A stretch of DNA of 64,000 bases from Okamejei kenojei (Eukaryota). Of this stretch, positions 3,320-58,861 are shown piece by piece. Within the stretch, counting starts at the first letter, position 1; the number at the start of each line of letters is the position of its first letter. Position numbers and translations under genes: made by a program. Below the pieces are notes generated by a model, which saw only the letters and a list, made by a program, of their open reading frames with translations, did not search any database and had not been told where the DNA came from. The stretch spans positions 496,001-560,000 of the forward strand of contig JAVHYY010000112.1 of NCBI GenBank assembly GCA_035221665.1, in the 5' to 3' direction.

Positions 3320-3389
3320 ATGCGTTGGCGTGCGATACGGAACGTAGAATCGTTGTATTATCCAATTCTTGCTGCAATTGGGGTTTTGG
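3320..3389 (+). CDS. GPR139/GPR142-like GPCR gene A, exon 1
   Basis: ATG at 3320 gives MRWRAIRNVESLYYPILAAIGVL + G|gtaag phase-1 donor at 3390; YYxxLAAxGV begins TM1 and matches exon 1 of gene B. Confidence 0.85.
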
Positions 3390-4139
3390 GTAAGTTTTCG
3401 TTAGCACATTTGGTCGAATGAGCAACATGCCATACCATGCGCCTTTTGATCGTAGGTGTAGAAGAGAGATACAAAAGTGATAGAAAATGTTGGCGATGGG
3501 AGAGCAAGATATATCAGCGCAGATGGAAATGAGTTAACTTTCGACGTCGAATATTGTTCCTCAGTGTTATGGTATTATCACCTTCAATTTATTTCCAACG
3601 ACGAAATGTGTAGGAGTGAACTACAGATGCTGATGTAAACCGAAGACAGGTACAAACGCCAGAGAACATCAGTGGGGCACGCAGGATCTCTGGATCGGCA
3701 TCTTTTGAAGAAGGATCTCGACCAGAACCCTCATCCATTCCTTCTTTGCGGAGATGCTGCCTGTCCCACTGAGTTACATCAACATGTCGTGTCTACCTTC
3801 GCATGTGGAAGTACTTTATTCCTTCTTTGCATTTATTTATTCTTCACGCAGCCAATGACCAGAAATAGTAAACACAAGAAAGTGGAGTTGTGGAGTTGAT
3901 CAGCTGTATAATATTATTCGTAAACGATATCGAAATGGCTTGTATAAAATGCAGCGCAAATTGGACTAGGGGAGGCAAGAACATCTCTGCAAACATTTTT
4001 CTCCACCGAACCCCCACCGCGTCAGTGCTTGAATTGGCGCCTCGCAGTTTAAATCCAGATAATGACAGACAGCTAAATGATACTCATTTGATTTAACGTT
4101 GCTTGATTTCTGTGGACTCAGCACTTGACGAAACCTCAA

Positions 4140-4370
4140 TAGACAATAAACAATTGACAATAGGTGCAGGAATATGCCATTCGGCTCTTCAAGCCAGCTC
4201 CGCCATTCAATGTGATCATGGCTAATAATCCCCAATCAGTACCCGGTTCATGCCTTTTCCCTGTATCCTTTGACTCCGCTATCTGTAAGAGCCCTATCTA
4301 GCTCTCTGTTGAAGGTATCCAGAGAACCGTCCCCCACCGCCCTCTGAACCAAAACATTCCACAGACCTCC
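4140..4370 (-). mobile_element. CR1 LINE 3' end
   Basis: agacaatagg tail plus the conserved CR1 3' UTR seen throughout the window. Confidence 0.75.
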
Positions 4371-5131
4371 TGCCATAATGCATCGCCAAAATTTAATCTA
4401 ACTGCCTTGAGTTAGCGAGCGGACTCGACACAAGGACGAAAGGTTCGATGACATTTGGGAAGCAGTTCATACGTTATTTAAAGAAACAATCTTTACTTGT
4501 TTTAATTGGCATCTGGTCAATGATTACGGCAATCACTCCTGAAACTGCTTCGGCACAGTCAATGTTACACGACGTGCCGGGATGTTATGAGATGTTTTTA
4601 ATAAATTTCAGGTTTCATTTTTGCCTTGGCAAGCCAGGCGTAAACTATTGCCACACCGCACCAGAGACGCGGAATCAAACGTAACCTCATGTGTTGTCTT
4701 TGTGTATCGCTAATTCGTTCTCGTCGTGAAAGCTTGCGTTTAGTTTGCGTGATGCAGGTGCAGCCTCATCACAACAACGTGCCCGGCGAATTGGCCCAAG
4801 TGAAGACAGAGATCCCTGTAGAACTGGTTCCACGCGGCGGAAAACCCGGTTTTCAGTCGCTTTGTCGGTTCCTCGATTTTCAGTTCTGCGATGATGTAAT
4901 TGGTGAAATTTAGCTATGCAAGTGTCCGCTGTCGAAATAATGAACTTCACTGAAGCAATGGCCCGATCTTTACTTTGCTGTGTGACGGAACGGAAACCTG
5001 AAAGTACCGCCCAGGCTTCACCAAGTGGAATTATTGAATGTGTTTGGTCATTTACCAGTCAATAACTGCATATTTATTGTTATATACAGTATATAGTTTC
5101 ATATACATATATTGTTCTTATTCTGTGTTAG

Positions 5132-6039
5132 TCAACCTAGTGGCGCTTGTGATTCTGTCCCGAGGAAAGTGCGGTCTATCCAAATGCATCACTCGTTACC
5201 TGATGGCCATGGCAGCAGCGGACCTCTCCGTCATAATCTGCAATGTGATGTTGTATCGGATGGCCGAAACGTATTGGCGGGACACTTTCTTACTCAACTT
5301 TTACGTCTGTAGATTCGTGCGCTTCCTGGCTCCCGTGGCTATAGACTGTTCAGTTTGGTTCACTGTCGCATTTACTTTTGATCGTTTTGTGGCCATTTCC
5401 ACGCAGCATCTAAAGTCAAAATATTGTACCAAGAGATCCGCGACGGTGATTATAGTCACACTGAGCGCAGGCTTCTGCTTAAAGAATATTCCCTGGGCAT
5501 TCGCCTATGTTCCGCATAACACATCAAATGTGCAAGATTGGGGTTGCCTGTTAGCATCACAATTCTATATCTGGACACCATGGATTGCGTTTTCTTGGAC
5601 TGAACAGTTATTAACCCCAGTTGTCCCATTCTGCTTGATTTTGCTGTTCAACGCGCTTACTATCAGACGCATTTTACTGGCTAGTCGGATCCGCAGGATG
5701 CTCCGTGATCCGTGCAACGGAAAGAAAGGAAAGGACGAGGAGATGAGTAACCGTAGGCAGTCCATCGTTTTACTAATTTCAATCTCCATGAGTTTTATTC
5801 TGCTCTGGGCCGCAACTGTTGTACATTTTGTTTTATTTCTCGTTATCGCGGCTTTCAAACGTAGGAGTGACATTAATCCGCTTTCAACTTTTCTACAAAC
5901 TGCGATCATGCTTCAGCTGCTGAGTTCCTGCACGAACACTGCCATTTACACCGTGACGCAAAGGAAGTTCAGACAAGAGCTACTCCGAGCGCTGAACTAC
6001 CCCTTTACACTGATTATAAAATTGCTGAAACAGACATAA
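5132..6039 (+). CDS. GPR139/GPR142-like class A GPCR gene A, exon 2 (intact 7TM)
   Basis: Acceptor ttctgtgttag at 5131 joins in frame (V-NLVALVILSRGKCGLSKCITRYL); MAAAD (TM2), SVWFTVAFTFDRF (TM3), SFILLW (TM6), SSCTNTAIY (TM7); stop at 6039. Confidence 0.92.
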
Positions 6040-56400: not shown

Positions 56401-56997
56401 AATATGATATTATACCACCGATGTAGAAAATGGATGGGTGACCACCAGTAAACGGATTATGGAGAAATAGTCATGTGAAGGGAAATGATCGGAGGGTAGA
56501 TGGGAATATCGACAACTGGTCCACAGCATCAGGCGTGGATGACAGCGGGGTGAGGGGAAAACAGAGAGTGCGACAATCATAGGAGACCCACTGGAGGGCG
56601 GGGGGGGGGGGGGGGGGGTGCGAGACGCAGATGGAAAATTCCATTCACTATGCGACACACTCCAGGATGACGATTCATTTCGTTGGGATCAACAGGCTAA
56701 CGGTTATAAAATATTCCAAACGCTATTTGAAGAAACCATATTATTTACTTGCCAGAAGCCGTTTTCACACAATTCACTGTATGATTTCACCAGTAGTTCG
56801 TTTCGCTTTTAAGCCACATTGCTCAAACAATATAATTTCATAAATCATTACAGGATAACAAGTCATACTGTCCTTTGATTATTTAGCAATTATGATGATG
56901 CAATTAATTGTCGCTCCAGAGATTTCACCGCGGTATAAATAGATCTGAGAAGGTTGATGCAGACATTTCTTGCCAGCTAATCGTTCTCACGGAAATC

Positions 56998-57067
56998 ATG
57001 CACGCACCCGGGAATGGACCGGTCTTTGCTATTTATTATTCGTTTCTTGCCGCTTTCGGAGTTCCAG
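56998..57067 (+). CDS. GPR139/GPR142-like GPCR gene B, exon 1
   Basis: MHAPGNGPVFAIYYSFLAAFGVP + G|gtaag phase-1 donor; same length (70 nt) and phase as gene A exon 1. Confidence 0.9.
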
Positions 57068-57953
57068 GTAAGAACAAAACATTCGCACGTGGACTTTCAT
57101 TTAAAACGCATTTTAAATCTGCCATTCAGCCACTTTCATCTGCAACGAATATCTCCGTCACTATCTGTTCCTTGTGATCTCGTACGAAATGACGAATTCA
57201 ATCAAGTTGTCTGATGCAAAGGAGGTTGTTCCAAAAAAATATTCTCTTGCCGTTCATGCAAGAAAAAAACGTTTTTTTTTTCACCGTCCTTTTCGGACAA
57301 GTCAGCAAGCTGTTCAATGGGATCATCTGTATTTTGTGATCAGAGACACAAAGGTATCATTGGAAGCTGAATGGAATTAATTTAAATTGTCTCTCCTCTC
57401 CGAAACTCACCCGACAAAAATGCCGGTGTCATTTACAGAATTTGGTGGCTGATGTAGCACCTTCTATCATATTATTTATTCGAATTCCACTTCGGATACC
57501 ATTTGACTCAATACTGTTCTGAATGCAGGCATTGAATCAATTTCACCTACCTAGGTTATGTTCTTGTTTGCATTTGGCAGCTGTTTACAAGTAACGTTAT
57601 TACGAAACGCTCTTGTTAGTTTGGCATGGTAATGTATCTTTTAATTTAATTTTCACACACAGTATTGTAAATGATCGCTTCTCCAATTAACATCGTTATT
57701 TGCTTTCAGTATGATGTGCTAATAGATTGATATTTTCTTATTTTTTCAACAAATCGGCATTATGTTTGGGAAGCTAGTCTTTTGTATTCCTTTCCATAAC
57801 CCTACGCGGGCGTGGCATGAGCCTAACAAAGCACAATATATTTGGTGATTTGCTGAATCGTCGAAATATTATACGAAATTATCTTGTCAATCCATTGGCT
57901 TTATCCGTGGCGGGCTGATCATGAATGAACTGCTTTATTATTTTGTTTTGCAG

Positions 57954-58861
57954 CGAATTTTGTGACGATCGTGATTTTGTCCCAAGGAAGATGCGGTCTC
58001 TCGAAATGCATAACTCGTTACCTGGTGTTCATGGCGGTGGCGGATCTCCTGGTCATTATCACAGCTGTGATATTAAGTCGGCTTCGGGCTATTTATTTCC
58101 CACTTACTTTCTTGTCCACCACTCCTGCCTGTAGTCTCGTTATTATCTTCAGCTGGATTTCAAAAGATACCTCAGTATGGTTAACGGTCGCGTTCACGTT
58201 CGATCGCTTTTTAGCTATTGGCAGCCATAAACTGAAGCTTAGATACTGCACCGAGAAAACTGCGGCTGTGGTTATAGTAATCATCTGCGTTCTGGCGTCC
58301 TTGCGAAACATCCCTTTATATTTTGAATATGAGCCCATGTATGTCATTGATAACGTACCCTGGTTCTGCAGCATTAGACCGATCTTCTATACATTACTTG
58401 CATGGAGAGTGTATGAATGGTTGCACCGTATGTTAAATCCATGTATCCCATTCCTCCTCATTTTATTGCTTAATGTTCTGACGATCAGACACATTCTAGC
58501 GGCCAGTCGGGCCCGCCGTAGACTCCGGGCGCAGAGCAACGGAGATAAACAGAGTGACCCCGAGATGGAGAGCCGGAGAAAATCAATTATTTTACTTCTC
58601 TGCATTTCCTGGAGTTTTATTTTGTTGAGGTTGACATATGTTGTAAATTTCCTATTTGTGCAGGTTACAAGCAACATCTATCCAACTGGTTCTAATTCCA
58701 ATGACCCAAAATTTATTCTTCAAGAAAGCGGATACATGTTAGAGATTCTTAGTTCCTGTACCAACACGTGTATTTATGTTGGGACGCAGTCTATATTCAG
58801 GGAACAGTTGAAGGATGCCATCAAATATCCCTTCAATCTAATTACTGGCTGGTTCAAGTAG
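57954..58861 (+). CDS. GPR139/GPR142-like GPCR gene B, exon 2 (open 7TM)
   Basis: Acceptor ttttgttttgcag; A-NFVTIVILSQGRCGLSKCITRYL, MAVAD, SVWLTVAFTFDRF, SSCTNTCIY; TAG at 58861. Confidence 0.92.

Follow-up and report, generated by a model that had tools for sequence, protein, structure and literature searches.

Olfactory receptor (OR) clusters in mammals adjoin both the alpha/delta locus of the T cell receptor (TCR) and the MHC. Peptide-type receptors have also multiplied in particular lineages for sensory or immune use, including the FPR and MRGPR sets of rodents and the FMRFamide/MIP-receptor-like (Srw) genes of protostomes. GPR139 and GPR142 are orphan class A receptors, as presented in the accessible part of PMC5430874, and have a very short N-terminus. 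The orphan clades GPR210A and GPR210B occur in coelacanth and bony fish; the accessible part of that study (PMC6504862) never mentions sharks and reports no expansion. In catshark, only 8 OR-type, 3 ORA, 5 TAAR/TARL and about 35 V2R-type genes are described in the accessible part of PMC11979771. The very small olfactory gene sets described for cartilaginous fishes, about 50 genes in catshark, are hard to square with how much these animals rely on chemical senses.

The stretch of DNA analyzed here (the window) spans 64,000 nt of a contig from the skate Okamejei kenojei. It carries two receptor genes that resemble GPR139 in several respects and lie among TCR V segments.

Receptor genes and V segments of the window

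Receptor gene 1 begins with a 70-nt exon (3320..3389, plus strand) that encodes a short N-terminus and the start of TM1 and ends at a GT donor. An intron of 1742 nt separates it from exon 2 (5132..6039, plus strand), which encodes the remaining 7TM domain and includes the stop. Gene 2 is likewise composed of a 70-nt exon 1 (56998..57067, plus strand), an intron of 886 nt, and an exon 2 with the remaining 7TM domain and the stop (57954..58861, plus strand). Each spliced gene yields an open protein of 325 aa, and the two are 48% identical. Both proteins carry FDRF and NT-x-IY, and both genes have the phase-1 intron, confirming the claim of the preliminary description that the window holds two intact receptors of shared architecture.

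The only Pfam family matched is 7tm_1 (E 1e-17 and 1e-16 for genes 1 and 2). In a PDB sequence search, gene 2 matches human GPR139 best (E 7e-8), and a PDB profile search ranked GPR139 and peptide receptors at the top. Exon 2 of gene 2, modeled with AlphaFold (pLDDT 85.8), shows the seven long helices of the class A fold, and every top Foldseek match of the model is a class A receptor, at a TM of about 0.7. Among 69 intact genes of the wider family, R3.50, P5.50, N7.49, and Y7.53 are present in all 69 and D3.49 in 68; T mostly replaces P6.50 and P7.50. By fold and activation motifs, both genes are class A (rhodopsin-type) GPCRs.

All V segments of the window lie on the minus strand, opposite the receptors, in agreement with the preliminary description. 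A supporting TCR-delta V exon (11407..11718) has an open frame and a 23-spacer RSS at 11406. It is accompanied by a NAR-TCR J segment (13210..13269) with a GT donor, a D segment (13667..13681) flanked by two heptamers, and a NAR-TCR V exon (14063..14356) with an open frame, whose leader, beginning at 14532, has AT rather than GT after it. Farther along are a frameshifted TCR V gene (61736..62261, leader at 62261) and a TCR V exon with one frameshift and one stop (63611..63920). The claim that neighboring V genes carry lesions is thus correct for the two exons at 61.7 and 63.6 kb, but not for the other two of the four, whose frames are open apart from the NAR-TCR leader junction. Nor do the arrangements seen in the window extend as rules across the surrounding locus (C176:340-600 kb), where receptors and V segments occur on both strands and receptors are intact in only eight of 17 copies.

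Another contig (C988) carries an approximately 90% identical copy of the receptor and V block in unchanged order. For this reason, a scaffold misjoin at the N stretches, against which the preliminary description had cautioned, is unlikely. On C988, gene 2 is interrupted by a stop and by frameshifts. Blocks of receptors and V segments have also been copied from the window locus to two other chromosomes, which supports the proposed co-duplication of the two gene types; on C3 and C20, the V segments that traveled along with receptors are broken. No V segments were seen in 60 kb sampled from a cluster of gene 1 relatives on C5. A joining of C176 at C15:57.45 Mb, where two V segments lie, was considered and rejected, as there is no supporting gap or TCR constant exon.

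A large family outside the GPR139 and GPR142 clade

A 29-nt degenerate motif has 860 exact matches in the genome, compared with 0 for the control; this number is a lower bound on copies. When a pattern almost the same as this one was applied to 42 sampled genes, it recovered 33. We estimate the family at some 900 copies or more, roughly a thousand. The preliminary description was therefore right to propose an expanded chondrichthyan receptor family, with at least 860 motif-bearing copies in O. kenojei alone. The many clusters and the local share of intact genes (8/17) are typical of a large family undergoing birth and death. Some clades are common to sharks and rays and are therefore older than the split between them. 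Of the 44 largest contigs, 39 carry copies, the majority of copies are far from TCR genes, and 489 of 672 matches to two sub-patterns are on C38 or later contigs, so this is not a system confined to the TCR locus.

NCBI automatically names these genes “probable GPCR 139.” No description of the family was found in the literature covered, which lay mostly outside subscription journals, and GPCR/GPR terms led to no mention of it in PMC11979771, PMC12227049, PMC7677710, PMC10751288, or PMC12863176. We likewise found no earlier account of the size of the family, its MHC clade, or the way it has exported TCR V orphons.

The tree takes the form ((GPR139,GPR142),(A,(B,family))), with support of 100/98 for GPR139 plus GPR142, 98/92 for the family plus lineage B, and 100/99 for the family plus A and B. 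In this tree the family is sister to lineage B, one gene in amphibians and sturgeon that is apparently single-copy, judged from match lists. Although these genes had been called GPR139-like, they group outside the GPR139 and GPR142 clade, and true single orthologues of both receptors, which are single-copy elsewhere, are present in the skate genome on C22 and C23. Lineage A is probably a GPR210 clade, as judged from the accessible part of PMC6504862 and not from matched identifiers. GPR210A/B and lineage B are the closest relatives (28-31% identity), and lineage B has W-x-T-x-x-F-T-F-D-R and third-loop motifs in common with the family. Unlike the family, these relatives are single-copy in the match lists.

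Similarities to GPR139 and GPR142 include the nearest solved structure by sequence, the very short N-terminus, the DR and N-x-x-x-Y motifs, and a phase-1 intron that immediately precedes the TM1 Asn. An AG is present at this intron site in 64 of the 69 genes, and the acceptor is identical in the GPR139 orthologue (exon 1 was not located there). In contrast, GPR139 lacks, in the alignment, the TM3 and ECL2 cysteines of the family, and it exists as one copy rather than about 900. The GPR139 ligand residues F3x33, H5x43, W6x48, and N7x38, as listed in a published abstract, are kept in 14, 13, 61, and 11 of the 69 genes (P, E, W, I in gene 1; W, H, R, Y in gene 2), in a distant alignment whose register may slip. 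Because these Trp/Phe-binding residues are not kept and the genes are not GPR139 orthologues, the aromatic amino acids suggested previously are not expected to be ligands. Taken literally, the automatic annotation would make these genes neuronal sensors of L-Trp and L-Phe, as the best PDB match and the intron position might imply. We regard this as highly improbable in view of an identity to GPR139 of just 19-22%, the loss of three of the four residues from most genes, and the true orthologues elsewhere in the genome.

Genomic neighborhood, promoters, and selection

Family copies lie within 1 Mb of seven of 14 Ig, TCR, and MHC loci. When positions equally far from a chromosome end are compared, a step that itself triples the expected value, 2.55 are expected (p 0.004); the excess may be specific to immune loci or may hold for any tandem-array region. 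The preliminary description held that scattered copies with no enrichment near antigen-receptor loci would count against it. The copies are indeed scattered, but they are enriched (seven loci against 2.6). Non-rearranging V-set clusters are not clearly enriched near copies (3/13 against 1.3 expected, p 0.13). Those on C8, C24, and C6 were considered as TCR loci and rejected because they consist of non-rearranging genes.

At least 73 copies reside inside the MHC, where they form a locus-specific clade that has a shark relative and represents less than one tenth of the family. The linkage recurs in the sawfish, the one other species checked, where 13 family members appear in a published table of the MHC. 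This clustering fits an immune role as well as a chemosensory one. Two side observations are no more than hints of TCR linkage in other species. One catshark relative of gene 2 maps to a contig of 133.84 Mb, and in the TCR/IgM table for catshark the entries on chr17 extend to 133.54 Mb. The accession of a sawfish relative is 229 numbers away from that of sawfish IgW.

The predicted proximal promoter of receptor 1 (3120..3233, plus strand) contains a CRE-like site at 3120, TAAT at 3177 and 3198, and a TATA-like element at 3228. That of receptor 2 (56896..56939, plus strand) contains TGATGCAA at 56896, TAAT at 56904, an EBF-like site at 56914, and TATA at 56934. Across 22 genes less than 72% identical, counts over the 250 nt that precede the ATG are 19 versus 10.8 in shuffled sequences for the homeodomain site TAATKR, 8 versus 1.2 for the EBF site, 11 versus 4.3 for TATA, and 1 versus 4.3 for RUNX, although shared ancestry of the promoters means that such counts overstate significance. 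Among 12 held-out promoters, replication was strong for TAATKR (12 versus 5.8; 0/200 shuffles) and weak for EBF (3 versus 0.6; 5/200). The TATA enrichment was not replicated (4 versus 2.3; 36/200), and RUNX, ETS, and E-box sites were not enriched. Octamer sites and GATGCAA with one mismatch allowed were not enriched in family promoters. The promoter motifs are kept across genes only 55-70% identical. EBF is a B-cell factor too, and the same match occurs in two of five TCR V promoters, a small set with some doubtful leaders. In mouse, Lhx2 and Ebf sites are over-represented in the promoters of ORs, according to the accessible part of PMC5608512.

Selection was estimated from 18 independent paralogue pairs among the 69 intact genes, with approximate helix numbering. 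The dN/dS is low in the inner TM regions (0.20) and the intracellular loops (0.26), rises to 0.64 at pocket positions (spanning 0.35-1.06), and reaches 1.0 in the extracellular loops. Entropy at pocket positions is 2.0 versus 0.86 bits (p 6e-8); against other outer-TM positions, the pocket differs only at p 0.052. The signaling faces are under purifying selection and the outer loops are not, which may reflect relaxation rather than selection of the latter. The family thus has the variable ligand face and conserved signaling face of a receptor repertoire.

A candidate chemosensory repertoire and its alternatives

We give roughly even chances to the reading that the family is an OR-like chemosensory repertoire built from the peptide-receptor branch. 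This reading is suggested by the large family, its position in the tree, the conserved inner face and variable pocket, the homeodomain and EBF-like promoter sites, and the small size of the known catshark olfactory repertoire. Its members would sit in olfactory or other chemosensory neurons, each binding different external peptides or small molecules, and all would signal through a common G-protein face. At the TCR locus, the receptor cluster and the distal V array would share a duplication-prone region, with V segments as passengers of receptor duplication rather than co-regulated genes. Counting against this reading, the catshark olfactory top-50 list in the accessible part of PMC11979771 includes no GPCRs, although it omits V2Rs too. 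Three sequencing runs from the same species, two of them flagged as probably DNA, gave only short paralogue pieces of about 80% identity and are uninformative as to expression.

Other roles would account for the same neighborhoods. A leukocyte repertoire, comparable to the rodent FPR or MRGPR expansions, through which lymphocytes or granulocytes would detect peptides derived from pathogens or damage, with linkage reflecting shared regulation, would be in keeping with the MHC clade in skate and sawfish, the excess near immune loci, and the CRE-like and EBF-like promoter sites. We judge it unlikely, given that the promoters show no enrichment of RUNX, ETS, E-box, or octamer sites, most copies are away from the immune loci that were located, and the exported V copies are broken. 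Less probable again is passive amplification, in which segmental duplication multiplied a compact two-exon gene in subtelomeric and small-chromosome tandem-array regions that also house immune genes, and only a minority of copies would matter. The nine broken copies among 17 at C176, the damaged C988 copy, the concentration of matches on C38 or later contigs, and the effect of chromosome-end matching all agree with this process, whereas the low dN/dS of the signaling face, the clades older than the shark/ray split, and the retention of promoter motifs among diverged genes do not. Slightly lower still we place receptors for reproductive or social signals (in sperm, oviduct, or nose) that read MHC-linked peptide cues, with the MHC clade traveling with MHC haplotypes. 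That clade has a shark relative, and peptides that contain aromatic residues activate the wider GPR139 branch (PMC8557429, accessible part), but the clade is a small minority of the family and the likeness to MHC-linked ORs is an analogy.

Should the role be immune instead, this would be, to present knowledge, the largest GPCR family tied to MHC and antigen-receptor loci, with a bearing on how these regions evolved. Under the chemosensory reading, hundreds of intact class A receptors sharing one automatic name could fill the olfactory gap. By sequence, the family does not belong to the OR, V1R/ORA, TAAR, or V2R families. A more ambitious proposal, which we advance tentatively and with the odds somewhat against it, is that sharks and rays possess a fifth vertebrate chemoreceptor family: nearly a thousand receptors that arose by expansion of a single orphan gene for a peptide receptor, share a homeodomain/EBF promoter code with mammalian ORs, and came, independently of ORs, to occupy the MHC and sites next to TCR and Ig loci. 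If true, this would supersede the picture of a shark sense of smell that relies on some fifty receptors.

Like the mammalian OR repertoire, the family consists of roughly a thousand class A genes arranged in tandem clusters, some of them next to TCR alpha/delta and the MHC, and evolves by birth and death; a variable pocket, a short N-terminus, and possibly homeodomain plus EBF-like promoter sites are further resemblances. The family differs in stemming from another class A branch, on the peptide-receptor side, and in having an intron in its coding region. Relative to FPR/MRGPR and Srw receptors, it is of independent origin, is far larger than the FPR or MRGPR sets, and is embedded in antigen-receptor loci in skate. 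In the Atlas, the next clusters after the family are FMRFamide-receptor-like.

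Receptor genes and neighboring TCR segments

The two GPR139-like receptor genes on the plus strand of the window prove to be as the preliminary description gave them. Gene 1 (exon 1, 3320-3389; exon 2, 5132-6039) and gene 2 (exon 1, 56998-57067; exon 2, 57954-58861) each splice into an open reading frame of 325 amino acids across a GT-AG intron in phase 1, and their products are 48% identical. For both, 7tm_1 is the sole Pfam match, and exon 2 of gene 2 is predicted to adopt the seven-helix fold of class A receptors. Position 6.48, usually Trp in such receptors, is Arg in gene 2 and in seven other sampled genes.

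On the minus strand are the V, D, and J segments of a NAR-TCR cassette, a supporting V-delta, and two further V segments, both broken. The earlier remark that V genes near the intact receptors are damaged applies to the two broken segments, but not to the NAR-TCR V exon, whose frame is open. Despite this open exon, the cassette may be spliced abnormally. Its leader exon (14532-14481, minus strand) carries AT in place of the expected GT donor. A misjoin at the N-gaps had been raised as a concern, but another contig (C988) carries a copy of the window block at ~90% identity with its order unchanged, and thus the layout is independent of the N stretches. In this copy gene 1 keeps an open frame (dN/dS 0.35), and gene 2 is disrupted.

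Sequence comparison also indicates that the suggested co-duplication of receptors with V segments is real. A receptor and V unit of ~20 kb at C176:453-471 kb, in the same TCR V locus as the window, has been recopied within receptor clusters on C3 and C20 at ~75-85% identity, unique flanks included. The exported units hold three V copies on C3 and one on C20, which carry stops or are split, and many of the accompanying receptors are still open. We infer that the V segments were passengers of receptor duplication. Decayed TCR V orphons lie inside receptor duplication units at C3:35.40-35.67 Mb and C20:3.46 Mb. At C176:340-600 kb, 8 of 17 receptor copies are intact.

Two further open V segments with RSS (C15:57.453 and 57.462 Mb) stand beside gene-2-like receptors on C15, inside the large receptor array of that contig and ~0.4 Mb away from IgM clusters. 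All of gene 2's nearest relatives in this genome are in V-bearing regions, and its clade is old, as both sharks and rays are represented. Gene 1's nearest relatives cluster together on C5; the 60 kb sampled there showed no V segments.

A large family distinct from GPR139

The proposal that these genes belong to an expanded chondrichthyan family is borne out. A 29-nt degenerate motif has 860 matches in the genome (control, 0), and copies reside on 39 of the 44 largest contigs. Given these matches, and given that a near-identical pattern recovered 33 of 42 sampled genes, the family likely comprises about a thousand loci, with pseudogenes and possible haplotype duplicates counted. Protein searches returned ~2,700 first-look candidates, among which 128 and 131 were scored, every one at least 47% identical. 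Two sub-patterns placed 489 of 672 matches on C38 or later contigs. The gene architecture, with its 70-nt exon 1 and phase-1 site, is family-wide: the AG at this site is present in 64 of 69 intact genes, and exon 1, located for 53 genes, is 70 nt long in 38.

Members of this family are not, however, orthologs of GPR139. The true GPR139 is single-copy on C22 and groups in a separate clade with GPR142, a GPR142-like gene being on C23. Identity of the window genes to GPR139 is 19-22%, versus 28-31% to lineages A and B, the nearest relatives outside cartilaginous fish. Both lineages are apparently single-copy, with A found across jawed vertebrates and B in amphibians and sturgeon. In a 40-row tree with the topology ((GPR139,GPR142),(A,(B,family))), the family node had support of 94/82, B+family had 98/92, and A+B+family had 100/99. 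Relations among the family, A, and B stayed unresolved in a quicker tree of 75 rows. No one-to-one partner of lineage B was found in this genome, where the best matches reached 29-37%. Moreover, of four GPR139 residues needed for Trp and Phe according to one study (PMC5430874), three are kept in just 11-14 of 69 family genes.

Lineage A probably corresponds to the orphan "GPR210" clades of an earlier report, whose accessible portion does not mention sharks (PMC6504862). A further GPR139-like gene at C5:3.35 Mb is lineage A-like, with the same phase-1 intron and one frameshift. The GPR139 ortholog itself (C22:1.175 Mb) adjoins low-complexity sequence and has frameshifts in this assembly, which may reflect assembly error or gene loss.

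Large clustered class A repertoires are a known kind of system. Catshark olfactory repertoires hold a few to ~35 genes per family (PMC11979771). NCBI carries the family genes as individual annotations, and in the literature searched, mostly outside subscription journals, no published account was found of the family, its size, or its linkage, nor of this independent origin and scale.

Proximity to immune loci

Although family members are scattered across the genome, they are enriched near antigen-receptor and MHC loci, so the suspected linkage stands in part. On C1-C37, with the TCR alpha/delta locus excluded, 7 of 14 Ig/TCR/MHC loci have a receptor no more than 1 Mb away, versus 0.87 expected under uniform placement and 2.55 when matched on chromosome-end distance (p 0.004), baselines that do not represent an unrelated tandem family. 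With neighboring loci merged, the count is 6 of 12 (p 0.011), and 3 of 13 non-rearranging Ig-domain clusters are near a receptor versus 1.3 expected. These figures derive from the best 150 of 269 C1-set anchor candidates, with C38 onward left out, and from an incomplete receptor map partly seeded near Ig/TCR/MHC loci.

The MHC was recognized in translations at C30:1.3-8.6 Mb by class II alpha, class I alpha-3 exons, and beta-2-microglobulin. With a receptor from this region as query, 73 of the best 131 matches, including the top 71 consecutively, fell at C30:1.6-9.0 Mb, where one local clade of at least 73 receptor genes is dispersed across the MHC. The family members that branch deepest among those sampled include some from this region, with weak support. 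Linkage in another species is seen for the MHC: a sawfish MHC gene table (PMC10751288 supplement) has 13 entries named "probable GPCR 139" among its class Ib, B2M, and C4 entries, and a term search of the main text found no mention of them.

IgM clusters lie within the large C15 receptor array, IgW within an array on C10, and TCR-beta constant exons on C35 are 0.5 Mb from receptors. Germline-joined VJ-type genes that lack RSS, which we take to be NCR3/NKp30-like, form an array at C8:21.7-23.1 Mb whose start is ~40 kb from a receptor cluster.

Likely role of the family

Signaling motifs are nearly invariant across the 69 intact genes, for which mean entropy is 0.86 bits in the inner TM, 2.0 in the pocket, and 2.3 in the extracellular loops. 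Similarly, dN/dS in 18 independent pairs is 0.20 in the inner TM, 0.26 in intracellular loops, 0.64 in the pocket, and 1.0 in extracellular loops. Because the signaling motifs are nearly invariant while pocket and extracellular loops vary, the pattern reads as that of a repertoire in which many ligands would be bound through variable surfaces and a single output shared. Peptides are the first candidate ligands, since the wider branch around GPR139 binds peptides with aromatic residues (PMC8557429).

In the 250 nt upstream of the ATG of 22 divergent genes, homeodomain sites occur in excess of shuffled sequence (19 versus 10.8), as do EBF (8 versus 1.2), TATA (11 versus 4.3), and CRE-like sites (9 versus 2.3); no RUNX or ETS excess was found there. 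Of 20 new loci held out, 15 had an exon 1 that could be located, and 12 shared <72% identity with the first set and with one another. These 12 gave 12 versus 5.8 for homeodomain, 3 versus 0.6 for EBF, 4 versus 1.1 for CRE-like, and 4 versus 2.3 for TATA.

The preliminary description had considered chemosensory or lymphocyte repertoires. Mouse OR promoters are marked by Lhx2 and Ebf sites (PMC5608512), a likeness to the homeodomain and EBF sites of the family, and we give roughly even chances to its members being sensory-neuron chemoreceptors. Against this reading, the EBF pattern also occurs in 2 of 5 V promoters, and promoter counts are inflated by the common ancestry of the genes. EBF is active in B cells as well. 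A role as leukocyte receptors seems unlikely. That the genes spread by passive amplification is more doubtful still, and a reproductive or MHC-peptide role is slightly less probable again.

Finally, an exact TGATGCAA, presumably an ATF/C-EBP composite-like element, is present in 3 of 15 held-out promoters versus 0.23 in shuffled sequence, and also at window position 56896.
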